DNA of 33,648 bases, taken from Welwitschia mirabilis (taxonomy: Eukaryota). The DNA lies in the NCBI GenBank assembly GCA_051453625.1, contig JBOZIK010000001.1, positions 34,439,858 to 34,473,505 on the forward strand, given 5' to 3'. This document shows, piece after piece, positions 6,470 through 28,216 of this stretch. The number at the start of each line of letters is the position of its first letter. Position 1 is the stretch's first letter. The notes under the pieces are model-generated. The model was not told where the DNA came from, searched no databases, and saw only the letters and a program-made list of their open reading frames with translations. The position numbers were made by a program, and so were the translations under genes.

Positions 6470-7329
6470 TCCAAAGATGTATAAAGTTTTAACCTTTGTT
6501 CATTTACTTTTTAGGTTTCTTGAGTTTAAAGAGTAGAGATCTTAATAGAGCCATGGGAATGTACTCTTTTTACATGATAAGAACTAAGCTGCTTAGAGGT
6601 CAACTTGTTATGTAAAATATGTACTCAAGTATTATACAAAATCACAAATTGACCTAGTTTAAAGGATTTATGTAGAAGCTTTTTCTCATGACAAAATTTG
6701 GCTTGGGATTTCTAGATGAATTGTTTATGGATAACAATAATTATTTTCTTATTAAGATATTGAATTTGTGTTAAATGATAGTGAATATTCTTCTCATGAT
6801 TCAATACATTATGTTGATGAATAATATGATAAGAGTTATAGAAAACATCAATAGGTAGAACACAAGTCTTGTCATACACAAGTCCATAAGGTGAACATCC
6901 AAGTGAATTACATAAGTAGTATGATAAGCCCATAGCACATTATTAAGTTTAACAAATGAAAATTTCTTATTTTTCAAACTATATTTTTATAGTATTTTCT
7001 TAATCTCTTTACTAGCATTCTCAGATTGACCATTTGAAATTCTATGTTTAATTCCTAGAAAAAGGAGAAGTTTACTAAGAATATTATCAATGAAGTGGGT
7101 ACCTTGATCACTAAATAAGATTTTAAGAAAGCCAAACCTATTAAAAATATTGGATTTTAGAAAGAAACACATAGACTGGGCATCATTAGTTTGAGTAAGG
7201 ATTTCTTTAATCCATTTCATGACATAGCCTATAACTACCAAGATGTAATTTTTGTTATACTAAGATAGTGTAAGAGGGCCTATGAAGTCTATAATCTAAT
7301 AATTAAAAGTTTCACATTCAAGGATAGGT
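6470..7329 (-). pseudogene. Gypsy integrase core and C-terminus (copy A), decayed
   Basis: IDFIGP..YILVVIGYVMKWI..TNDA..FLKSNIFNRFGF..ILFSDQGTHF..NGQSE..KEIKKIL; LGCSPYGLVYDKTCVLP; KVNEQRLKLY (consensus VNGQRLK). Contains stops and frameshifts. Confidence 0.92.
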
Positions 7330-7739
7330 NNNNNNNNNNNNNNNNNNNNNNNNNNNNNNNNNNNNNNNNNNNNNNNNNNNNNNNNNNNNNNNNNNNNNNN
7401 NNNNNNNNNNNNNNNNNNNNNNNNNNNNNTGTAAACATTGCTCTTAATCAATTTTTGTAATGAAACATTTTTCTTTGTTCACTTTTGTTTGTTTGTCAGA
7501 ATATTTTATCTATCTATATTTTCAAATCTAACATTTCTTTACTCACCTTTGCACTTCATTTCTTAAGTTATTCAAATTCAAAAATACCCATCATCTACCT
7601 TCTCACTTCCATCTGCTTTCTTTACTTTATTATCCAATATGGGACGTATTATTTTTCTCGGCCGGGTACGGGAAGGGGGGGTGGAGAGGGTGGGATGGTG
7701 GGGGGATGGGGGGGGGGGAGGGGGAGGAACCCATTTTCA

Positions 7740-9040
7740 TGGCTCATTTTTAGTTATTTCAAAGCTTTCATAAGACATAATTTAAACATTTTACTTCATA
7801 CACATTATGCATTACATGCTATTTTGCTATGAGATGTGTTTTATGAGCCTGTTTTATAATTTTCATATTGATTTTTTTAAAAATAAATTGGCTTAGATTT
7901 ATGGTTTTTTGCCTGGTTTTTATCAAAGACTGACAAAAGCTAAGTGAGGGGCTATGTTGTGCTGCCAATTTGTGGTTATTTGATGGAGTTTTATGAGCTA
8001 TTTTGCAGGACATTTACATAGGTTTAGGTGAAATTCTGAGGATATTGGAGAATCAATAGAAGATCTCGGAAATGTACAATCCTTACTAAGATTTGAGGAA
8101 TTTAAGGAACATTCTGATACTCATAGCTATAAAAGAAGAATTTTGATAGAAAAGGCTAGCTTTTACTGATTTGGATGTTAAAGAAGGCCATCGTTCCCTC
8201 TGTCATCCCCACAATAGGCAGGACGATGATAACATTTTATGCTGACGTAGACTACTGAAAAACTACTAAGTTATCATTTTGAGTTATCTTTTGTAATGAG
8301 ATGTCATCCCCATCATTGTTTCGACAACAATAATGATGACACTGATATTGTAACCAACTCCGATAGCCAACCCTTAACCATTTCATCTATTTCTTATCTG
8401 TAAAAGAGCGCGTATTACACCACTTTCTATTTGTCATTTTTGAGTTTGTAATTCTATAAATAAGACCCCTTTTGACTCTCCTCTCTATCTTCATTGCATT
8501 GGAAATTCTCGCGATAGGAGATCAAAGGGCAGAAGATCCATCTCGAGCGTTACAGAAAGATGTTCACTTGGTGGAGCATTGTGTATCCTCCATTGAGTCC
8601 CAACTATTTTATAACCTATATATTATTACTTATTAATATAAACTCTATTTTCATGTTTGCATATTAGTTTGTTAAATGTTCCTTATGGTTTATGTTACCC
8701 TTGATCTGGTGGCAATTTCATTGATGATATAAATCATTAAAAGGGTAGTCTTTGTTAAGGCTAAAAAAAAGTAGTTTAGTTTCATTTTGCATTGCACTTA
8801 CATTTAGTTTCATTTTGAATTTGCATTACATCCTTTATTTTCTACATTATTTTTTAAGCTTCTGTTACTTTACTTTGTGAAAAGTAATCCTTAGTCTCAT
8901 CTCATAATCTTCAACAAGAATAAAACAGTTGGGTTTACTCCCACTCAGACTAGTGAGTCATATTATGTAAGAAATCTATTTTATTTATGAAATGATAGAA
9001 TCTTTTTGAGTATAAAATGCTTGCATAAATACACACCACA
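7740..9040 (+). repeat. LTR of the same family in opposite orientation, abutting integrase (solo or 3' LTR of a nested insertion)
   Basis: Ends ..GCATAAATACACACCACA at 9040, the reverse complement of the window start. Aligns with 32340-33648 (GGACATTTACATAGGTTT, GTATCCTCCATTGAG). No PBS follows and integrase sequence resumes at 9041. Left boundary obscured by a gap and low-complexity sequence. Confidence 0.8.
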
Positions 9041-10340: not shown

Positions 10341-11440
10341 GAGTTCTTCTATAATGTGTTCGGAAGTGAGTTTGTCCTTTATATTTTCAAAGGCATTTTG
10401 AAAATCTTCACTCCAATAAAATTTGAAATCTTTTTTAAGAAGGGAATTAAGAGGTTTACAAATCTTGACATAGTCCTTAATTAATCTTCTATAGAATCTG
10501 GAATGGCTAAAAAAGGATGTTACTTATTTGACATTAGTTAGAAGAGATAGGTTCTAATGATATCTATTTTCGAAGGGTCCATTATAATACCATTACAAGA
10601 AATGTAATGACCAAGTACAATCCCACTCCTCACAAGAAAATTACTTTTCCTCCAACTAAGATGAAGGTCACTCTCTATACAATGGTCAAGGACATTTTCC
10701 AATATTTCTAAGATTTGTTTAAAAGAGTTATCAAAGATAGGAAAATCATCCATGAAGATCTTAATAGAATCCTTAATAATATCTAATAAAATACCCATCA
10801 TGTCTTTTTGGAAGGTTTATGGAGTATTACATAGGCCAAAGGACATTCTTCTAAAGACAAAAGTAGAAAAATAAAAGGTGAAAGTTGTCTTAGATTGATC
10901 TTCATTGGCAATGAAAAATTGGTTATAACCACTATATCCATCAAGGAAGTAATAATAAGCATGACCTAGGATTCTATCAAGATGTTGATCAAGAAAGGGA
11001 AGGAAAAAGGATCTTTTTTGATTACATTATTGAGTTTCGTAAAATTAATGCATACTTGCCACTTTTACCCCTTTTTGAATACTATAGTAAGAGGGCTAAT
11101 CTATTTACTATCTAAAATGGCATAAATGATACATATACCAATAATTTTAATAATTTTATCCTTGACTACCTGATTAATAATAGGACTAAGTCTTCTTTAA
11201 GGTTGCTTAATGGGTTCAGCATTGTCCTCTAGGTAAATTTTGTGTTGAATAATATGAGGAGGATTAACGCTAAGATCTTTATGAATCTAAGTAAAAGCTT
11301 CTATTTTTGAAGTGAGAAGTTGAATTAAGGCTTTTTCTTGAGAAGGATGAAAATGAGAACTAATATTCAATGGCTTATTAGGATTATTATTCAAGAAGAT
11401 GTATTTCAAATCATTGGGTAGGTCTTTAAGTTAAAGATCA
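10341..11440 (-). pseudogene. Gypsy reverse transcriptase, decayed
   Basis: LKDLPNDLKYIFL; YYYFLDGYSGYNQ; KTTFT..FRRMSFGLCNTP*TFQ; KIFMDDF catalytic motif; LSWRKSNFLVRSGIVLGH (ORF 10538-10801). Confidence 0.95.
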
Positions 11441-13919: not shown

Positions 13920-15430
13920 AGTTGCTTCTAGATCTTTAAACTTAAGACATTTTTGAGAAACTAAGTAGGAAATATATTGTACAATGAATACTTTACTTGA
14001 AATTACCCTCTTTTATTTTCTTTTTACTAAGCTCTTTCAAATTTTGTTGTAATTGGGGTTCTCTTGAAGGATCTTCCAAAAGGGAAGGTTGATAGTAACA
14101 TCATTCATAATTGCTTTCAAATACTCATCATAAGTTGGATTGTTGTTTAATCTTTCTAGCCATGGAATAGTCTTCTCATTGGGATGTTGGTTGTTTTTGT
14201 TGATTTAGGAAAGTTTAATTGATCAAGAATTTCAATATCATCTTTATGAGATTTTTCCTTATCTTTATGAATAAAAGTTAAAGGTTTTTCATAAGAAGCA
14301 GTATTATGTCCACTTCAAGTTACTACTTTCCAATCTTTCTCTGTATCATTTGAGTCTAAAATAGTTTGAGTGGCAAGTGATCCTTAAGGTCTTTAATTTT
14401 CTAACATGTTTTATCGAAGGAGGTTAATCAAATTTTTTAAGTTTTTACTCTAATTTTCTAAGATTTCATTAATGGTATCTTGTGTCATTTTGAGTTCCTC
14501 CATCATTTCTCTATAGGGATCATTTTTATTATAGTTGAAAAAATTGGGCTGAGAGTTATGACCTCTATATTTGTTGTTAAATGAATGTTGTAAAGATGTT
14601 GAAGGTCCATTATTTCTTGGTGGATATTATTATTTACCTCTAAATTTGTTTGGCCTTTGATTGAATGCATAGACTTCTTTAAATATGGCCTCTCTATAAG
14701 TTGGTAAAGCTGGGCATTCCTTGGTAGAATGATAGTTTTCATCACATATTTCATAACGGTTGAGTTAATTTAGTAATTTTGCATCAGTTAAATCTTTTAT
14801 GTAACTCTCCAATGTACTAGTAATATCACAAAGTAGGTTTTTATCCTTTGTTTATTCTTCTTCATGTTGCACTTTTTTAAGTCTCTAAGAATTTCACCTA
14901 TAGTTCTAGTGTCTCTACATGTAGTTTTTGACTGATTTTGACTTCTTTTTATAAGGTCCTGTCTAAAGTTAAATTGAGTAAATCTTCATCACATAAAAAA
15001 TCTATCATTTATCTGGTTTAATCATTCAATCCACTATATAAGTGATTAATAAGTTCTTGTTTTTCAAACTCATTCACTGAGTTGAATGACATAGTAATCA
15101 AAAATCTTTCATATGTTTAGGAATAATCTTCATAAGGGTATTGTTGAAAATTTATTACTTCTTTTCTTCTTATCCTCATGACTATCTCATTCATAAACCA
15201 TTTGATAAAGAATTCTTGTACATTATTCCATGACTTAAGACTTCTATGTGGAATGGTTTTAGGCCAAGTTTTTGCTTTTCCTTTTAAGGTAAAAGGAAAG
15301 GTTATCATGTAGGTCCTATTTGAAATTTTTTTTTTTGATTTCCTGAGGTAACAATGAGTTGTTCAATATCAGCTATGTGTTGGAATGGGTCTTCATTAGG
15401 TTCTCTAGAAAAGGTAGGATAGGCATTTAA
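13920..15430 (-). pseudogene. Gag region, copy 2
   Basis: PTFSREPNEDPFQHIADIEQL; MITFPFTLKGKAKTW..SLKSWNNVQEFFIKWF..RKEVINFQQ; ICDENYHSTKECP. Confidence 0.88.
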
Positions 15431-17679: not shown

Positions 17680-17941
17680 TAGCAGACAACCAATCTAACT
17701 TTCAACTAATTCTTGACATGTGTTGATCATCCAACCTATGCTAACTATCATCTTGGGTGTTATTCCAACCACATGAGGCATGTTAGAACCTATTTAATTA
17801 CTCTTGTTATATGTCATTCTATAATGGTTATCCTAGTGGTAGACAAGAAAAATATTAGATCTTATCAAACAACTATCATTTTACATAAGTCATATGAATG
17901 ACAAGGTAGATGACTAGTTTCTCACTACTAGAAATGAACTC

Positions 17942-18215
17942 TTTTAGGGCATTTATTTTAATACATACCTTAAGTAAAGTGCCTTATAACACTTTTATTA
18001 AATAAATCTTATAAAAATCCTTTTATGGCATTTGCTTAAACAAACACCTTAAAAAGCCATTTCGAATTTATTCCCTAGCATTTATAAAAAAACGTCTTAA
18101 TAATAAGACATGTATTATGTATTAAAGGAGATAAAAAGTATAGTATTTAAGGCATTTATTTAGATGAAAATATTAAATAATGTAATGGTTTTACCCCTAA
18201 ATAAAAAAGGCCTTA
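17942..18215. repeat. CACTA left subterminal repeats
   Basis: Variants in both orientations: TAGGGCATTT, AAGTGCCTTA, ATGGCATTT, AAACACCTTA, AAACGTCTTA, TAAGGCATTT, AAAGGCCTTA. Confidence 0.85.
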
Positions 18216-18365
18216 ATATTTTTAATAGCAGATCCACTTAATATGACATTCTTAGCATGTAACTTCTTCATTAAATGTTAGTTTTATGCCAAATCACACT
18301 TTCTCAATAGAGTTTTTAAGGAGAAAGAATATGAAGGTTTCATTACTATGTTTTGCATCTTTCAG

Positions 18366-19102
18366 ATGGAGCAATAGCTTCTTGAAGTCTACATTTATAT
18401 CTACAATTTAGGGGAGTAACTTTATTCTCAGTTTCATGTATTTAAAAATAATTGGTGCTTTCGATTGATACATCTTCATATTCTAAGGTTACATCATGAA
18501 ATTTTCTAATGATAAATGCTGCTAATCATTTTGTGAATGCTGAAAAACATTTCTTGTAATTTTGAATGCTGTGAAATACTAATGCAAATCCCTAATGCAC
18601 TTTTTTTGTTGATTTTTGTTTCCTTTTATTTCCAGCGATTTTGTGATCACTTGGGATGAATTGACGCAGAGTGAAGAGTATTTTAAAAACTTGTTTAAAG
18701 CAAGGCTAGGAAATAATGCCTATGATGATTTGAACTATTGAGGATCATCTAGAGATAGTAGAGGTAAAATAACAGAGCTAGAATATTGGCTTTTCTCTTT
18801 TCCATAACTTATAAAGTAGACATCTTGAGTTAACTAGCAGTTACTTATATTAAAAAAGACTAACATTTTGATATGTAATTCGGTAGTCATTGATGTTTAC
18901 TATTTCTTGAAGTTATTTCAATATCCTATAATTATTTTAACTTTTTTTTAACGTTTTTGTAGTTCACTACTTAAACAATCTTTATCATTTGGGAAGAATT
19001 GATAATTCTATTCTTTTATTATAATTATTTCCTTTTTATAGATCAAATCCTTAGATAACATAAAGAAAGTTAAGGCCAGAAAAGAATGATACATTAACTC
19101 AA
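18366..19102 (+). pseudogene. Unidentified captured gene fragment, three exons (18366-18415, 18636-18763, 19042-~19102)
   Basis: Polypyrimidine-AG acceptors and GT donors with matching phases. Spliced: MEQ*LLEVYIYIYNLGD|DFVITWDELTQSEEYFKNLFKARLGNNAYDDLNY*GSSRDSRD|QILR*HKES*GQKRMIH*L. All stops can be explained by C>T. Confidence 0.6.
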
Positions 19103-19710
19103 GTTGATCATTTGTGAATCTTTGTCATTTCAAAAGCAGATATCCTAAAATTTTAGTTAAGATGATTAATAATGGTAATATCAATAAGACACTCCTATGT
19201 TATTTATTTGAAGTTTCTAGGTATTTCTAATTTTTCTTTTTCACTTCAAATTATTTCCTTTGTGTACTCCTAAATATTCAGATGATAGCAAAATCGCTCT
19301 AAAATAACTTATTGACTTTAAGAAATAAAATAATCCTAAATTTTTTTATAGTTTATGTAAATGTTTTTTCTAACTGTTACTCTTCTTTTGATTGTACCTA
19401 ATTGAGTGTCTAATAAAATTCTTGACCTGATCCTATATTGCAAATGGTATTCATAACAAAATAATGTATCTAATAGAATTCTTTTTCCTAGTATTTTTGA
19501 TTTTAAAATAATGTGAATCAAAATCTCTCAACTTAGCAAATATCATTGTTTCTATGCTTAGTATACAAGTGCATTGCTAGTAGCTCTTTCTTAAAATGTA
19601 TCATAATAGATATTCAATCTTAAATATTTCATTAGAAAAAATCTATTAATGCTAATTAGGTTTCTAATGGAGTATCTGTATTAAAATTGTTTGTGATTGA
19701 TATGATCTAG

Positions 19711-20073
19711 GTGAAGCAAAGGTTTGTGAAAATGAAGAGAGTTTATGCAGCACTTAAAGTTTTAGCTAATGCAATTGAGCATCTGATGAGAGAATTAGCC
19801 TCAGAGGAAGGAGATGTTTTTATACAAGATGAGGTAGCTACATAGTATTTTTCTTCCATGAATTTATTTGGATGTTTGTTTCTAGTGTTGTTTCATTTCT
19901 TGCATCTTATGGGCTCCATAATAGAGTGAAAAATTAACATTATTTTTACTCATTTTATGTAGTTGAAAAAGAAATGCAATTGAATAAGGTACTAATAGAA
20001 GAAACATTGACATACAACATTGTGCCTAAGGATGTATAGTCAATTAAAAAATACAATTGATTTAATTGCAGAG
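19711..20073 (+). pseudogene. CalS: Callose synthase (CalS9/CalS10, GSL10/GSL8-like) N-terminal fragment, two exons (19711-19833, 19963-20073)
   Basis: VKQRFVKMKRVYAALKVLANAIEHLMRELASEEGDVFIQDE|LK/EMQLNKVLIEETLTYNIVPKDV*SIK/NTIDLIAE resembles the recalled CalS9/10 stretch ERKTVKRKRVFATLKVL..EE|LK..D...EDLIAYNIIPLDA..TNAI..FPE. GT-AG intron 19834-19962; exon 2 has compensating frameshifts. Confidence 0.85.
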
Positions 20074-21021
20074 GTGGCTCTCCTCATATATTGAAAAAAA
20101 ATTAGTTTTTTATTCTGCTACTTGTGTAAAGATTTGCAATTGATTATGTTATTGCATGGGTATTTGAAAGCTTATTCTTTGTAGTCCATAAGATTATTAT
20201 TTAGTTGTGATAAAACCATATAATATGCTAATATCCAAAATGAACTTATCTCTTCTTTGCCTATTACATCTAATGCACTAAGAATGTTGTTGCATGTNNN
20301 NNNNNNNATCTGTTATATTAGTTAGTTGCCCAAAAAGCCACTTTATAGATAAGTATAAAATTTTGAAATGATCATATGCATATTTTTCAAATAGCCCTAG
20401 TGCTCTAGATGACATTCAAACAATAGTGTATGACCTCTTAAGTGTAATTAAATAAAAGTTAATTACATCTTAGAATCATAAAAGTCAATTTAATTTTTAT
20501 TTTATCCTTTTCTTGACTTCTAGCTGAAAACATGCAAGGGGATTTCTTATGTAGCATATCTACAGTTTTAACAATAAAATTTTGTTTTAGCATTTANNNN
20601 NNNNNNNNNNNNNNNNNNNNNNNNNNNNNNNNNNNNNNNNNNNNNNNNNNNNNNNNNNNNNNNNNNNNNNNNNNNNNNNNNNNNNNNNNNNNNNNNNNNN
20701 NNNNNNNNNNNNNNNNNNNNNNNNNNNNNNNNNNNNNNNNNNNNNNNNNNNNNNNNNNNNNNNNNNNNNNNNNNNNNNNNNNNNNNNNNNNNNNNNNNNN
20801 NNNNNNNNNNNNNNNNNNNNNNNNNNNNNNNNNNNNNNNNNNNNNNNNNNNNNNNNNNNNNNNNNNNNNNNNNNNNNNNNNNNNNNNNNNNNNNNNNNNN
20901 NNNNNNNNNNNNNNNNNNNNNNNNNNNNNNNNNNNNNNNNNNNNNNNNNNNNNNNNNNNNATATATAAGGTACCTATGTTTAAAGGTACTGTGTCTTTCC
21001 TTATTTCATAATACATCTTAC

Positions 21022-21302
21022 TTCAACCACGTCCACTAGTTCTGACATTGTTGCACTATCACCTCCCATAACTATACATTCAGCACTCTTCTAGTTTCTA
21101 GAATAATATTTTGGGGTATTTTTCTATCAACATTTATTTATCATCTAAAGCTGATTATCCATATAGATGCCTTCAGATAATAATAGTACAAAACTACCAA
21201 AATGAAACAACTAATTTCTCATGCTAAGGAATTATATGTGTCAAGTTCTAGCTTTACTCAGATGTAAAGAAGAAAGCAATGTCCTATAGTGCAAATGTAG
21301 AC
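21022..21302 (-). pseudogene. Unidentified captured gene fragment, two exons (21302-21258, 21097-21022)
   Basis: Phase-2 compatible junction, donors GTAAAG and GTAAGA. Spliced: STFAL*DIAFFFTSE|N*KSAECIVMGGDSATMSELVDVVE. Confidence 0.55.
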
Positions 21303-22057
21303 CTTCAGTTTATCATCTTTAGAAACCTTAATGATTACTAGCATATGGATAACAATACACCATTTGTAATCAAACACTTAAATGAAACTATCAAAATAGT
21401 TCTATAACTTTTGCTTCCAATCTTTAAGTATAAATGTTTCATAAGCTAAAAGTCACTAATTTAGAAGTGAAAAAACTTTGTGAACTTTCTAATTTATTCT
21501 AGGTGGTTTTATTTAACATGGTAAATGATTAAAGTAATCCCAAGAGATATCCAACTAAAAACATACACACACACTAGTGCAATGGACAAATGAATTTTAT
21601 CCTATCTTTTTATGTTATGCATATTCTTGCTATGTAAATTTATAGAAACTAAACAAGATAATAGTAATCTGATTATAAATACCATTCTTATTTCTAATGC
21701 TTAGAGAAAAAGAATTTATCTAATTTAGTAGGTATTATCTTATGTAGTTTAAAAAATCTTAAGCAATGAAAACAATTAGATTCCATCCACACTTTGGTAA
21801 GGTATGTTTATGAGAAAGTCTCTTTAGATCTTTCTGCATACTTGAGATTATTAGTCAAGCATATGAGGTTAAATCTTTTTTAGAGTAGTGATATTGATCA
21901 TTTGAAAGTTACTTATTATGAAGTATTTCTTACTGTGAAGTATTACCTTAGTTTTAGAAACTAGTGGTTTTAACATATTCAATAATTATGAGGTTAGCAA
22001 ACCTCCCTTAGAATGATGAAATTTTTTTACAAACTATTATTTTACCTTGATCTATAG

Positions 22058-22429
22058 GTTTCCATAAATGACACCATATTAAGCATTGCTACACTAGATG
22101 AGTATGACCTTTTTCATGAAGGGTATTGGTATTAATTAGAAGTTTTAGCTTTGGTAAGGTTTTCAATCCTCTCTAATGTGCTTTTTACCTTATCTTTTAC
22201 TTACCTTGGTCGTGACTCATGCTTGCTTCAGCTAAGCATGACTAAAACTTTAGAAGATTTAATTTATTTTTAGTTCATTTTCCTCTTTCTTTTAGAAGAG
22301 TCATATGACTAAGTTACCTTGTATGCAGTTCTTGGTAAACCCCAACCTCTAATTTCTGAAGAAGTTGTTAAAGAATAAGTTATTTAATGGAAAAGTTTTC
22401 TATGGTCTTCCTTTTATCTCTCAACTTAG
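22058..22429 (+). pseudogene. ABCG: Full-size ABCG (PDR) transporter fragment, two exons (22058-22211, 22329-~22429)
   Basis: VSINDTILSIATLDEYDLFHEGYWY*LEVLALVRFSILSNVLFTLSFTYLG|LLGKPQPLISEEVVKE matches the PDR-associated region motif LF.E.YWYWIGVGALLGF..LFN.LFTLAL.YL.PLGKPQA.ISEE. Phase-1 GT-AG intron 22212-22328. Confidence 0.9.
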
Positions 22430-22600
22430 GTAATTGATTTTCTCTTCTAGAATTTGCAAATACATATTGTTCCTAAAACATTTGTGCCATTTATTCATTA
22501 TCAATTCTCCTTTGAAATGTGGATTCAATAGCCTAGTATGCATTCATAGTGTTCATAAAACTAAATATCAAACTATCCGTGTTGGAATGAAATTTTATAC

Positions 22601-23022
22601 CAGTGGATGGAAAAGCTTAAATAAAATCCTTATTGATAGTGGAGCTGCTAGTTAAAACACTGATTGATATGTTAACCTATATTCCTAGCCAATCTAATAA
22701 GCTTGTAATGAAGAAAATGAGATACATTAACTTGACCAGCAAAATACATTACATGTTATAATGAAAAAAATTTCTATAGCCAATGTACTCTAAAATGAAT
22801 TTCGGGATTACCCATAATGCACTGATGTGAAATGGTTTTTGATAAAAACAGATACATAGATGATTCATTTGATAGACTATGGAATGTTAAGAAATAGGAA
22901 TTCTTCTTTACTACTATTACTACTAGAGCAATTTGTCCACTGGAAGAGTAAGTGACAAGCCTCCTTCCAAGGTAATGCAGACTACCATTGTTAGCAAATA
23001 GACATTTTCATCCACTCTTGCA
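22601..23022 (-). pseudogene. Unidentified captured gene fragment, exons 23022-~22912 and 22676-22601
   Basis: After acceptor CTATAG: ARVDENVYLLTMVVCITLEGGLSLTLPVDKLL followed by a TAG/TAA run (possibly decayed Gln codons). The second AG..GT-bounded 76-bp block has an ambiguous frame. Confidence 0.5.
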
Positions 23023-23455
23023 CTATAGGCAAGGAAGAGCCAATCCTATAGAAATCTCTATTTTGCATTGTATTTTTTAGAAACTAAAGTGCTAAATGAA
23101 AAGATGTAAGGGAATTCAATTTGTATCATGATAACAATGAGCTCTATTACTACATTTTGCATTGTATTTTGCAAAAAATGAAGTGCTAAACATTTTAGAT
23201 ATTAAACATCTCTTATTAATGTGTGCTTTCCTTAATGTTAACTTTTATTTCTAGAATTAACTTTCCTTTTGGTACATATGCTAACTAAAAGGAAAAGCTA
23301 ATATAAATGTGCATCTGCGCTTCTGTTTGCTTTCTTTTCTTTTTCTTTTCTTTTCTTCCTTTGTTTTTTTTGCATTTTTTCCATGGTTATAGATTAATTC
23401 TATAGTTATAATGTAATTTCTTAGTTTCTGACATACTAGTATTTCAAATCTATAG

Positions 23456-23606
23456 GCCACACTCACATGAGTGTTCTGGAAGTGGTTTGGATGGTGAACT
23501 TTAATTTATAAGTTGGGAAGAATCTCTCATTTCCACTCAATAGGGAAAAACAATGGACTATTCTACCCCACTGATGGATTTATTATATCATGATGTAACA
23601 ATTGAG
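23456..23606 (+). pseudogene. RDR1: RNA-dependent RNA polymerase (RDR1-like) catalytic exon, 151 bp
   Basis: PHSHECSGSGLDGEL*FISWEESLISTQ*GKTMDYSTPLMDLLYHDVTIE vs recalled RDR1 RPHPNECSGSDLDGDIYFVCWD.ELIP....PMDY.P....LDHDVTIE. Acceptor CTATAG, donor GAG|GTAAG. ECSGS and HDVTIE favour RDR1 over RDR2 and RDR6. Confidence 0.88.
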
Positions 23607-23996
23607 GTAAGGTTGTGCTTTATTTTAAATTATTTATTAAATGCATTACGTGTACTAATAAGATAGAAAAACATTGAGCCACACTGACAATGTAGTTAGG
23701 CAGTTTTATTAATTGTCATTTATTATGTAGGTATCTGATTATCTTTATATCCACCCTTCAATCCACAACACTTTATTTTATATCAACAATATCAATTTTT
23801 GTTGGAACCATTCATTTTTTCTTTGGAGACAGTATTTTAATTTGCATATTTAATCTTGTTTTGATTTATGATGTAAAATAGCTTAAAGGATTTTAATTGT
23901 AGTTCATCAATTTAACTATTGAAACATGAATTTAGTATGGGGACCTTGCATTTTCCTACTATCCCTTGAGCATATCTTCCAAAAGGATTTAGGTAC

Positions 23997-24106
23997 CTAT
24001 GTAAGATAACTAGCTTCCCAGATTTGACAAAACAGAAGAGGTGTTTCATAGGCATGACATTACTAGGTTCAGAATATATGATATCCATTCACAAAATGGA
24101 GCACAT
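23997..24106 (-). pseudogene. Possible additional captured exon
   Basis: 110-bp higher-GC block bounded by TTAG and AG|GTAC. Candidate reading CAPFCEWISYILNLVMSCL*NTSSVLSNLGS*LSYI; not recognised. Confidence 0.3.
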
Positions 24107-25199
24107 CTAATCTTCTATGCTTAGGAGAATAATCTAGAGTACACAATTAATACATAAGTAGTATCTTATATTTGTACATGCACAGTCAAGGATGTCAACC
24201 TAAGGAGCTAAGAAATGAAAGTAAGACATGTAATGAAAAAAATTACTGACGTAAATTAAAGCAAACACATCAAAATCTCAGGTAAGAAAGTGGATAATTG
24301 ATGAAGGAGACAAATAATTATCTTTTAACTATAGCCATATTTACAGCTTATGCTTCCTGATGCTTCTTCTTTGCACATATAGTAACTTACAACTAGTTTA
24401 CTACCAACATATCCATGCAGTTTTTGATGCCTTGCTTTTTCTTATTAATTTTAAATTAATTATTATTCATTTGAAATTATAATAACTAAGATTAGCTTAT
24501 CATGTTTATGAAGATCATTCTTTGTTTAGCATTCACAGTCATTATTGTATCTTAAAAATCAATTATGACAAGATCCATAAGTGCTTTTAAAGTAATCTTT
24601 ACTTGAATTATGACATAGGTAATCTTGAAGGGGTATCTAATAAAATCTAGAAATTTTGGCTTTGTAGAGTCTATTATCTGCTTTACTCTNNNNNNNNNNN
24701 NNNNNNNNNNNNNNNNNNNNNNNNNNNNNNNNNNNNNNNNNNNNNNNNNNNNNNNNNNNNNNNNNNNNNNNNNNNNNNNNNNNNNNNNNNNNNNNNNNNN
24801 NNNNNNNNNNNNNNNNNNNNNNNNNNNNNNNNNNNNNNNNNNNNNNNNNNNNNNNAAATAGAATGAGATATTGAGAAGGAAATTCCATAAGCTATAAGAA
24901 GGCTCTCAGAGATTAAGAGTTAAATGTGAATGAATTCCACATCCTCTAGATGCTCCTTTTCTCTTCTCTTAAAGTTATAAAGGTTTATGACTACTAATTT
25001 GTTTTATGCATAAAAGGCCTAACCCTTTCTATACATCAAAATTTAGCCCTAGGTTTATCCTTAAATTAAAATGTAACATTAGAGATTGGCTAATGTTAAA
25101 AGATTCTTGACCTAGGGAAAGCATCTGTAACTAATCATTTAATATGGACATGTCAGCATTTTTTAGAATCACAATAACAGATCATTTGATAACTACACC

Positions 25200-25485
25200 T
25201 TAGGGGCATTTATTATATTAATATCTTTTGATGAGGTGATGCCTTTTGAGTAGTTTATTTGATAAAATGCCTCATTTATGAAAATAAATGGCTCAAAAGG
25301 CCTTTTAAGGCGTTTTCGAGAAAAATGCCTTGAAATCCTCTTAAGGTGTTTCTTTTAAAAATACCTAAAAGACCTTTAAAAGCCTATTGGCTTGGTTTTT
25401 TTAAAGCATTTTATAAAGAAATGCCTTAAAAGTATTTAAGGCATTTTTAGGACGTTTTAAGATGTTTTAGAAATGCCTTAAAATC
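25200..25485. repeat. CACTA right subterminal repeats
   Basis: Many copies in both orientations: GGGGCATTT, AAAATGCCTC, TAAGGCGTTTT, AAAATGCCTTG, TAAGGTGTTT, AAATGCCTTA (twice), TAAGGCATTTT. Confidence 0.9.
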
Positions 25486-26445
25486 CTATATTTCTTGTAG
25501 TGTCTCTTACTCAAATGCACTTTAATCATCATCCTTTATTCCACTATTATAATGGAGTAACTTCCCATTTTGGAAATCATTGCATTTCATGATCTACATG
25601 GAAGCTTTGAATAATTTTCATAAATCCATGAAAATCCTTTCAATAGGACCTAAACATGTGCTTCATAAGTATGTCAAATAGGTCAATTTGGCTTTACAAC
25701 ACTAATGTTATAGACATTTTTATTACCAATATTTCATGTGAACTCTATTTTTCTTTTCTCAAGATGATAACTTTTATTCTTATAAAGTGAATCATGAATT
25801 ATGGAGTATGAATTCTTTTACAATTGTACTATTGGTTTCCATGTACTTTGAATTGTTAGTGGCTTAATAATATAAATAAATTGATACATAATATACAAAA
25901 CTAAATTTACAAACATATTATCACACACATTCAAATAAAACTTTATGGTTGTTGTGGAGGCAATATCCATTTTATAATATTTTCTTAGAAAGTAGAAACT
26001 ATAATTAAAATTCTTTATTCCCTTTTGTTTTATTCATTTTTATATGAAAAAGAGAAAAATCAAGTCTAGTGAAACCTTTATGATAGTTAATAATGTGACC
26101 TAGAGCTTTTGAAAATAAGCCTTTATCTATAATCATGAAGTTTTAAATGAATGTATTTTTAGGATTTTATAAAATGCCTAGCTACAAGTATGAGTATCTA
26201 CATAACATTAGTATCAAAACAACGGGAAAATGAGAAACATAGATAGGATTTCAAATTTTTCAATTTAGATCCTTTTACCTTTGTTTTATAGATTGCATAG
26301 AACATATTTAGATCCCATGATGAATAATATTAGAATTTTATATTTTTGATTTTGTTTCTAATAAAAAATCAACTACTATTTGGGTACTATTATATGTTTA
26401 AAATTAAGAATAAATATGTGATTATTAGAATTTGAAAATATTCTT

Positions 26446-26651
26446 TATTATAGTGGATTATGCTTGAACTTAGAAATATTGATTGTAATAGAACACATTA
26501 CTTATTATGAAAGTTAGGCATTCATTATGAAAATGTTTCTCATACTAGTGCAATTGTACTTAATGAAGAGTTAAACTTTTATAAAATGTGATGTGCATTA
26601 ATATTAATATTTTAGCCAATACTAATAAGTTCAAGCATAATATCCTATAAA
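26446..26651. repeat. Fold-back inverted repeat (MITE-like)
   Basis: Perfect 16-bp inverted pair ATTATGCTTGAACTTA (26457-26472) / TAAGTTCAAGCATAAT (26626-26641), extending imperfectly to arms of ~70-80 bp. Confidence 0.75.
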
Positions 26652-27133
26652 ATAATAAATAGACATTACCATTAATAAAGAATCTTTTCATGTTTCTATC
26701 ATTATATTTGTATGATTTTATTTCCAAACATTACCACTAACTAGATAGCAGTTATTTCTAGTAGAAAATTAAATTGAACATTTGAAATGCTGTATAGGTT
26801 ATTAAAGCATCCACATAAAGAAAAAGATAATGTAATGGAGTTACTCTAATTTTGGTTCCTTGTAATTTATCAGTTTATTATGTTTAGTAAGACCACTATG
26901 ATAGATATTTATGAGCATATGTCTTTAATTATGGAATATGAATTAATACATGTTGATAAGGCTCAATACAAATATTATGACAAACATCCATAATTGTTTT
27001 CTTAGTCTTTATGAGTTTTCTTGGGTTTTGTTTCATTTGGTATTTGAATGTATGGAGAAGATAAAAAATCATAAACTTAATAAGAAAAAATAACTTTGTG
27101 TTCTTAAACAAATTTCTCAAAATTATACTATAG

Positions 27134-27279
27134 ATTGCCTAACAAGTAATGTGAGATGGGAGGATGGTATGCATTAGAATCCAACCTCATCCTTAGGTAC
27201 TAGGGAATCCATTCTAGTCTTGTCTTTTAAAACAATAGTTACAATGGGGTAGCTCAAGCCTAAGAATTTTTATTTGAAA
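27134..27279 (+). pseudogene. Unidentified exon-like fragment, probably cargo of the second CACTA
   Basis: CTATAG acceptor and GTAATT donor; CLTSNVRWEDGMH*NPTSSLGTRESILVLSFKTIVTMG*LKPKNFYLK, both stops TAG (possibly from CAG). Confidence 0.45.
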
Positions 27280-27879
27280 GTAATTATGTAACATAATATT
27301 TCTTAATTCTTAAGATGCATAATGTGCTTCTTAAATCTAGTTCATAATATGTTACTAGCTTTCTGTTGCAATTCCTCTCATTTTTGTAAAACAGCCACTA
27401 GTGTTTATATGAAACTAGATGTCTTAGGTAATAAGTAAGAATATGATAGAAATTAGTATTCTTATTTCTAAGATAAACTATCATTTATTTATAATATGAT
27501 CATTTTATCATCTTTTTCTTATGTGTCATCTATGTTGTTATCAAAATGATTAAGAAGTACTAGCTTGTGTTATAGCAAGATTAACATGATTTGGACCTTA
27601 ACATGATTATTTTGGATACCTAGAGCTAAATATACTGAATATTAATGTTAGTGCTTTTTCTTGACTTTTATTAGTAGATGTCTCAAAAAAAATATATGAT
27701 CTAATTAGTGTCTTTTTGACTAAAGATGAATTTTCCTTATTAAAGTCATGTATTAGTGTTTGGTTTATACTATGATATTTTGTGAAACAAGTTTGGTTAT
27801 GTTTTATTATGAAGTAATGGCAACTTTTATTGAACTTCTCAACATCATATTTCTTAAGAGAGTCCTTAAATTGACATTA

Positions 27880-28216
27880 GACTTTTTATGATGTTTTTCA
27901 ATAAACACCCTAAAAATCTAGTTTTATGATATTCTTAAGGCTAATTTAGAAGCATCCTAAAAACCACTTTTTAGGACATTTTCTAGAGTCACTTTAAAAA
28001 TAACCTTTTAGATGTTTTTATAAATGCCCTAGCAAAGATATTTTAAGACATTTTTGGGTGGTTTTTTAGGGTAGTCTTAAAAATGCTATAAACGGTTTAG
28101 AGCAATTATGGAAAAGCTTTCAAAGAATTTTAAAAGCATTGGAAATCATTTAGACAATTTTCAAGGCCTTTTAAGGCATTTTTAAAATACTTTAAGAGCT
28201 CAAATTTCTAGTAGTG
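27880..28216. mobile_element. Orphan right end of a second CACTA of the same family
   Basis: TIR ATTTCTAGTAGTG (28204-28216) preceded by subterminal repeats (TAGGACATTTT, AAATGCCCTA, TAAGACATTTT, TAAGGCATTTT). Flank is AAA; no separate left TIR found. Confidence 0.88.

Follow-up and report, generated by a model that had tools for sequence, protein, structure and literature searches.

RDR is a polymerase that drives RNA silencing, and the locus described here raises the question of how a solitary, decayed exon for its active site came to lie between the ends of a transposon, and whether such a captured exon could feed back on silencing. The window, by which we mean the whole 33.6-kb stretch of DNA that was analysed, is AT-rich (GC ~0.27–0.32), contains ten runs of N that represent assembly gaps and has no Rfam family at gathering score. 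The first-pass annotation had described a 151-bp exon with intact splice sites in this window, with the catalytic DLDGD decayed to GLDGE and with two stops, and had judged the copy too decayed to code. All of these statements held up. Translated from 23457 on the + strand, the exon encodes the three segments PHSHECSGSGLDGEL, FISWEESLISTQ and GKTMDYSTPLMDLLYHDVTIE, separated by in-frame stops at 23502–23504 (TAA) and 23541–23543 (TAG). The codon of the first Asp of DLDGD has become GGT (23484–23486) and that of the third GAA (23496–23498), AG lies directly upstream (23454–23455) and GTAAGG directly downstream (23607–23612). Many matches in the HMMER search described below were short predicted proteins consisting of R/PHPNECSG...HDVTIE/V (slashes at the exon limits) with intron read-through on both sides. 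As these short RDR proteins show identical exon limits, the borders seen here correspond to conserved natural ones. RDR mRNA reads cease to match the window exactly at 23454, which provides read-based support for the 5′ border, the 3′ border not being among the 24 of 2,096 loose ends listed.

With its stops read as X, the fragment matched the Pfam RdRP family (PF05183) at profile positions 426–478 of 582 (E 1.5e-4) at 21 bits, short of the 23.8-bit cut-off, which is no surprise for 50 residues. The best phmmer match in the PDB was Arabidopsis RDR2, residues 821–870 (E 7.5e-9). An exhaustive HMMER search of 1.84 billion representative proteins returned 73 proteins at E ≤ 1e-3. The top match, a repetitive low-complexity protein of 2073 aa, is not an RDR and was excluded from later sets; that match aside, the RDR exon was present in all 25 sequences inspected, and 214 of the proteins collected carried the exon motif. 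Word-indexed protein searches with the 50-residue fragment gave three candidates, none of them scoring, and a near-match search gave no candidate, because decay has left the fragment with too few exact words in common with its relatives; the exhaustive HMMER search found them. When 135 full-length RDRs were used as tblastn queries (mostly angiosperm RDR1, including ten from legumes, together with Cucurbita RDR2 and others), all 135 matched at 23430/23454–23642 (best E 4e-13). No other RDR part was found in the 33.6-kb window with these 135 queries, the remaining matches on both strands having E > 0.2. The tblastn alignments also extended past the exon, into DILVF--QIY upstream and VRLCFILNYLLN downstream. 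We rejected this extension as chance similarity in AT-rich intron sequence, since the short RDR proteins show a conserved intron right after HDVTIE. Pfam, phmmer against the PDB, HMMER and tblastn all pointed to an RDR, and judged from these alignments the match to RDRs is not due to chance.

The fragment had initially been labelled RDR1-like. To place it among the RDRs, 213 exon segments were split by the residue that follows ECSG, into a Ser set (RDR1-type; 191 segments, 161 distinct, RDR1-named where names exist) and a Gly set (RDR2-type; 22 segments, 19 distinct, RDR2-named where names exist); the sets thus rest on one residue, with names checked for few members, and RDR6 sequences were left out. 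The fragment scored 65.1 bits against the Ser-type (RDR1-like) profile versus 59.3 bits against the Gly-type (RDR2-like) profile, and 62.6 versus 60.7 bits when the splitting residue was masked. Its best identity was 26/50 to both types, the maximum for any RDR exon in the set. In a FastTree phylogeny it fell among the Ser-type sequences, but on a branch of 1.25 and with weak supports (0.09–0.81). The RNA transcript described below continues as ...MEYSAPP, without the RRPR of RDR2 exons. Overall, we assign the fragment to the RDR-alpha class (RDR1/RDR2), undecided between the two with a leaning towards RDR1. The RDR part of the original label was therefore sound, and its RDR1 part is reduced to that leaning.

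Like plant RDR1/RDR2, the fragment has the natural exon borders, and it aligns end to end with residues 821–870 of Arabidopsis RDR2 (PDB 7eu0/7roz), the segment with the DLDGD active-site loop. Unlike plant RDRs, it is one exon alone, with two stops, GLDGE instead of DLDGD and an identity of at most 26/50. Both the catalytic DLDGD and an open frame, the marks of a functional RDR, are absent. The RDR piece has decayed without constraint and encodes nothing, two of the three catalytic Asp residues being lost. Position 23485, whose G turns the first Asp into Gly, was also inspected in public sequence data with ≥85% likeness to the window, which comprise DNA contigs from two runs (X1 and X2) with two organism labels, and RNA reads; the contig and read results given throughout draw on 40 of 1,520 differences, 15 of 344 joints, 24 of 2,096 loose ends and 16 of 12,892 pieces. 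The G was absent from all 16 DNA contigs covering the position (5 in X1, 11 in X2) and from all 191 RNA reads, every one of which carries A. This G is either private to the copy in the window or an assembly error.

In two RNA runs chosen by species label (X14 and X17), the highest RNA depth of the window lay over the RDR exon (18+19 in X14, 9+8 in X17). At 23454, 98 X14 and 50 X17 reads leave the window and run upstream into GATTGCTTAGTTTTCCCACAAAAAGGTGAA. This sequence translates to DCLVFPQKGE and corresponds to the conserved last residues encoded by the preceding RDR exon (compare VDCVVFPQKGxR in RDR1 and DCLIFPQKGER in Cucurbita RDR2); the window has AT-rich intron at this place. As the upstream continuation is the preceding RDR exon, the reads represent genuine spliced RDR mRNA, and both RNA studies show expression and splicing of a donor-like RDR transcript. 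All reads over 23485 (128/128 in X14, 63/63 in X17) have the A that restores the Asp. On the downstream side, matching of the reads is interrupted at 23540/23544 by a cluster of mismatches, and the loose-end consensus CATGACAGACCAATGGAGTATTCTGCCCCA (frame HDRPMEYSAP) agrees with the window at 22 of the 30 positions of 23541–23570. Sorted by likeness to the window (≥99, 95–99, 90–95 and <90%), the X14 reads numbered 2, 19, 173 and 228, and over ~87 nt the likeness between RDR transcript and fragment is 85% or more. At least one X14 read differs from the window at 23485 alone over its aligned part. Behind 23540/23544, two or three slightly different transcript variants were seen, which continue as ...ACAGACCAATGG... 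and ...ACAGACCCATGG..., and in X17 as ...ACAGCGCAATGG..., and which suggest that at least two RDR paralogues or alleles with this exon are expressed. Judged by likeness to these reads rather than from a genomic locus, the fragment is a moderately diverged copy of an exon from an expressed host RDR, and the expressed RDR gene with the closely related exon is its probable donor.

We next consider what surrounds the exon. CACTA (En/Spm) elements typically have 13-bp terminal inverted repeats (TIRs), and their autonomous members carry a Tnp2/Transposase_21-type transposase and a TnpA-like gene. The exon had been placed inside a transposon by the first-pass annotation, and such a transposon could be delimited: a CACTA element of 7,580 bp at 17923–25502, with TIRs that agree at 12 of 13 positions and a TCT/TCT target-site duplication (TSD), encloses it (Table 1). 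The terminus pattern CACTACWAGAAA has three exact matches in the window, at 17923 (+), 25502 (−) and 28216 (−); with up to one mismatch there are five matches, versus 0.6 expected, and none of 100 shuffles reached five. A subterminal TTAAGGCATTT-like motif occurs 17 times in the window, versus 2.2 times expected and a count reached by none of 100 shuffles, and clusters at 17944–18216, 25305–25481 and 28043–28181; the first motif is equally distant from the end at the 5′ and 3′ termini. The 3′ terminus reads ...ATTTCTTGTAGTG, ending at 25502, and the chance of a 3-bp match such as that of the TSD is ~1/64. About 190 contigs per DNA run stop matching the window at 25501/25502 and then continue into unrelated sequence (agreement 0.4), the behaviour expected of a transposon end. 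CACTA TIRs (10–54 bp long according to the available text of PMC4938662), a 3-bp TSD and subterminal repeats, the features by which the accessible parts of PMC4938662 and PMC2613891 define the superfamily, are all present, and we therefore assign 17923–25502 to CACTA. A Pfam search of the + frames from 19001 to 27003 and of the − frames from 18001 to 27902 detected no transposase domain; it excluded the + frames of 17923–19000 and the 540 N of gaps inside the element and returned only two host fragments. We therefore class this copy as non-autonomous, which leaves its superfamily membership unaffected. Among the 15 of 344 joints listed, there was no empty site or insertion polymorphism. A contig across the left junction (17731–18085, 2 differences) occurs under both organism labels of the DNA runs, so the insertion is common to both.

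Table 1. Positions of the CACTA element's parts, its captured host pieces and other features of the window
Feature	Position	Strand	Remarks
Integrase core (rve)	6987–7259	−	E 4e-6
Reverse transcriptase (RVT_1)	10538–10816	−	E 1e-5
gag (Retrotrans_gag)	15117–15362	−	E 1e-6
Left target-site duplication TCT	17920–17922		Directly before 5′ terminus; TCT repeated at 25503–25505
5′ terminal inverted repeat CACTACTAGAAAT	17923–17935	+	12/13 versus reverse complement of 25490–25502; 13/13 versus reverse complement of 28204–28216
5′ subterminal repeat region (TTAAGGCATTT-like motifs)	17936–18220	+	Four motifs at 17944–18216
Captured host-gene exon	19711–19833	+	123 bp, open 41-codon frame, AG before, GT after
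Start of exon-like host piece	20524–20596	+	AG 20522–20523; runs into assembly gap
Start of exon-like host piece	21262–21330	+	AG 21260–21261
Captured PDR-type ABC transporter exon fragment	22058–22210	+	One in-frame stop; AG 22056–22057
Decayed RDR catalytic exon	23456–23606	+	151 bp; GLDGE for DLDGD, two stops, AG/GTAAGG borders
Short exon-like host piece	25119–25175	+	X14 loose ends
3′ subterminal repeat region	25200–25489	+	Six motifs at 25305–25481; very high genome copy number
3′ terminal inverted repeat (reverse complement CACTACAAGAAAT)	25490–25502	−	Terminus pattern, contig ends
Right target-site duplication TCT	25503–25505		Same TCT as 17920–17922
Second CACTA 3′ end, same family	27880–28216	−	Subterminal motifs, CACTACTAGAAAT terminus; 2.7 kb past element

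A second 3′ end of the same family lies beyond the element without a partner 5′ end, and the DNA between the two 3′ ends (25.9–27.7 kb) is single copy. A comparable arrangement, with ends in tandem, has been proposed for intermediates from which new Pack-CACTA elements arise. The inverted repeat 17922–17954/28185–28217, both arms of which start with CACTACTAGAAAT, would give an element of 17923–28216; we dropped these limits because of the 25502 terminus with its matching TSD and the contigs that end at 25501/25502. The mobile unit could nonetheless be a larger composite of this extent that includes 2.7 kb of single-copy DNA, as a tandem-insertion intermediate of a new Pack-CACTA: the terminus at 28204–28216 matches the 5′ TIR at 13 of 13 positions and has its own subterminal motifs, and the order 5′ end, 3′ end, 3′ end resembles a route outlined in the available text of the review PMC13317346. 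We regard such a composite as quite unlikely, as its flanks are TCT and AAA and thus form no TSD, whereas 17923–25502 has TCT/TCT, as hundreds of contigs end at 25501/25502, and as the stretch at 25.9–27.7 kb is single copy, so that the composite has not been copied. We therefore retain 17923–25502 as the element.

Within these limits, the RDR exon is accompanied by other host-gene pieces. RNA reads (≥85% likeness) pile up on short islands with sharp loose ends at the island edges; as reads of spliced parent mRNAs match the captured exon alone, these islands can be read as captured exons. Loose ends were found in X17 before 19709 (11 reads), behind 19833 (9 reads) and before 21261 (17 reads), and in X14 before 20522 (19 reads, agreement 1.0), before 25119 (20 reads) and behind 25175 (22 reads; agreement 0.99–1.0 for the latter two). 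About 1.3 kb upstream of the RDR exon and on the same strand, the PDR_assoc family (PF08370) matched at 22064–22210, residues 1022–1070 of the frame beginning at 19001 (33 bits versus a cut-off of 24.9; E 5.2e-8). The 41-codon open exon translates to VKQRFVKMKRVYAALKVLANAIEHLMRELASEEGDVFIQDE, for which no Pfam family was matched. Capture took place at the DNA level, as the pieces retain their borders (AG/exon/GTAAGG for RDR and AG/exon/GT for 19711–19833) and parent-mRNA reads break there. Behind 22763, 12 of 14 X14 RNA reads carry an extra AAA, with an RNA depth of 7/5 in bin 22666–23024; these reads likely reflect a related transcribed locus or another captured piece. Counting the RDR and PDR exons, the host pieces in the element number at least five or six; they are unrelated to one another, and every one lies on the + strand.

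Copy number was read from the DNA contigs of X1 and X2. Just downstream of the RDR exon, positions 23650–23780 are covered by 10–18 contigs in X1 and 14–20 in X2, and the summed contig depth is 120–133 in bin 23384–23742 versus 6–14 in the single-copy bins 25897–27691. The cargo is thus multi-copy rather than single-copy, with a depth 10–20 times that of single-copy DNA and 5–20 contig variants; the resulting ~10–20 cargo variants per genome, at ≥85% likeness, include the real RDR gene(s) and, being derived from depth and contig counts, are no true copy count. The termini are far more abundant: summed depth at the left end is 1303 and 262 in the two DNA runs, and at the right end (bin 25179–25537) 8440 in X1 and 6171 in X2, whereas in the interior of the element it is 20–185. 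As interior depth is far below that of the termini, cargo-bearing copies are a minority of the family. Of the suggestion that copies with the RDR cargo might have amplified more than copies without it, only the multi-copy state of the cargo was recovered, and depth gives no hint that the RDR cargo favoured amplification.

The three assembly gaps inside the element (20298–20307, 20597–20960 and 24690–24855; 540 N) matter for its interpretation, as the contig with the RDR and PDR exons (20961–24689) contains neither terminus and is linked to the TIRs by scaffolding and by the similar multi-copy depth on either side of the gaps. The exon might accordingly be a relic of an RDR pseudogene broken by indels, or have been brought by a nested element, and lie between CACTA ends by accident or mis-scaffolding. 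Besides the three gaps that part the exon's contig from both termini, the abundance of transposon debris nearby (rve, RVT_1 and gag remnants at 7–15.4 kb) is in keeping with such an origin. We nevertheless consider it unlikely, as the 135 queries revealed no second RDR exon across 33.6 kb, the 3.7-kb contig, itself multi-copy, also carries an unrelated PDR exon in the orientation of the RDR exon, multi-copy depth is alike on either side of each gap, and the TSD is intact. The multi-copy state of this two-exon contig and the even depth across the gaps lend independent support to an element with captured cargo. The debris itself consists of degenerate LTR-retrotransposon remnants on the minus strand between 6987 and 15362, broken by stops and assembly gaps. 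Within the same region, 7567–7773 is a short G-rich/C-rich stretch in otherwise AT-rich DNA, that encodes runs rich in Gly on the + strand and in Pro on the − strand.

Overall, these data make it likely that the dead RDR-alpha catalytic exon is cargo of a 7.58-kb non-autonomous CACTA element of the Pack-CACTA/Tgm-Express1 type. Such an element would have taken up genomic DNA of several unrelated host genes, with exons, splice sites and parts of introns, and would have captured, in one strand orientation, at least three or four exon pieces besides those of RDR and the PDR ABC transporter. The cargo-carrying element would then have been copied by transposase supplied in trans, and the RDR piece would have decayed without constraint, acquiring two stops and losing two of three catalytic Asp residues. 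The expressed RDR gene with a related exon under the same species label would be the probable donor.

Two known systems resemble this arrangement. In soybean, the 5.7-kb CACTA element Tgm-Express1 contains five fragments of host genes whose splice sites still work, as given in the available text of Zabala & Vodkin (PMC1947982). Like it, the 7.6-kb element described here is a non-autonomous CACTA with 13-bp-type TIRs, a 3-bp TSD and subterminal repeats, and holds several unrelated host fragments with their exon/intron borders kept. Its subterminal motif is TTAAGGCATTT-like, in contrast to the TTGGCAG and AATCTTACAG motifs reported for Tgmt*/Tgm-Express1 in the accessible part of PMC2613891, and as these motifs differ, the two belong to different families. 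The cargo genes also differ (RDR and PDR here), and the present fragments are known from DNA, not as chimeric transcripts. The Pack-CACTA elements of Arabidopsis and rice (Catoni et al., PMC6379663, available text) are likewise non-autonomous CACTA elements with captured chromosomal DNA inside, and the extra 3′ end at 28216 recalls the tandem-array route in the accessible part of PMC13317346. Whereas mobilisation of Pack-CACTA was seen experimentally, according to the available text, mobility of the present element is deduced from its TSD and copy number.

Could this cargo act on silencing? In maize, captured gene fragments have been discussed under a model of epigenetic conflict and camouflage, in which element siRNAs may hit the donor gene (bioRxiv 10.1101/777037, available text). 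This model provides a general framework for the feedback loop on which the first-pass annotation had speculated, and its extension to an RDR locus is by analogy, through which an effect on silencing via shared small RNAs would be possible in principle. If the cargo were functional in this sense, small RNAs from the element, including those with RDR-exon sequence, would act on the host RDR by methylation or cleavage and either damp silencing or camouflage the element. Published siRNA cross-talk between captured fragments and their donors (available parts of bioRxiv 10.1101/777037 and PMC13317346) gives this idea a precedent, and the ≥85% likeness of an expressed RDR transcript to the fragment across ~87 nt, the existence of near-identical stretches (the X14 read that differs solely at 23485) and the multi-copy cargo region would fit it. 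We nonetheless hold a functional cargo to be very unlikely. The donor-like RDR transcript has the top RNA depth in both RNA runs and so is not silenced, most RNA reads are only 85–95% alike, which makes the copy 10–15% or more diverged, and the 22/30 match over 23541–23570 means that long perfect matches are scarce for the copy in the window. Cargo-bearing copies are, moreover, a family minority, and their cargo comprises at least five or six unrelated pieces, RDR being just one. Sister copies of younger age may resemble the donor more closely. A further version, in which a CACTA subfamily with an RDR1-like exon feeds 21–24-nt RDR-matching small RNAs that turn down the silencing-amplifying polymerase, with the copy in the window as an old decayed member, we judge very improbable. 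The number of unrelated pieces beside RDR points to a capture that was incidental, and on present evidence the exon then decayed neutrally.

The carriage of gene fragments by CACTA elements is a known route of exon shuffling in plant genomes, of which the present element is one more example. What sets it apart is what it carries, an exon for the active site of a polymerase of RNA silencing. In a look-up of terms, 'RDR', 'RNA-dependent' and 'Argonaute' were absent from the available text of bioRxiv 10.1101/777037 and of the 2026 review PMC13317346, and no report of RDR cargo was found in the open-access literature, supplementary tables of captured genes lying outside this scope. Were feedback through the cargo to be true, the silencing machinery itself would be subject to negative feedback, or camouflage, driven by a transposon, and if small RNAs from the cargo act on the donor RDR, the element would offer a direct test case for 'epigenetic conflict' at a gene of the silencing pathway.
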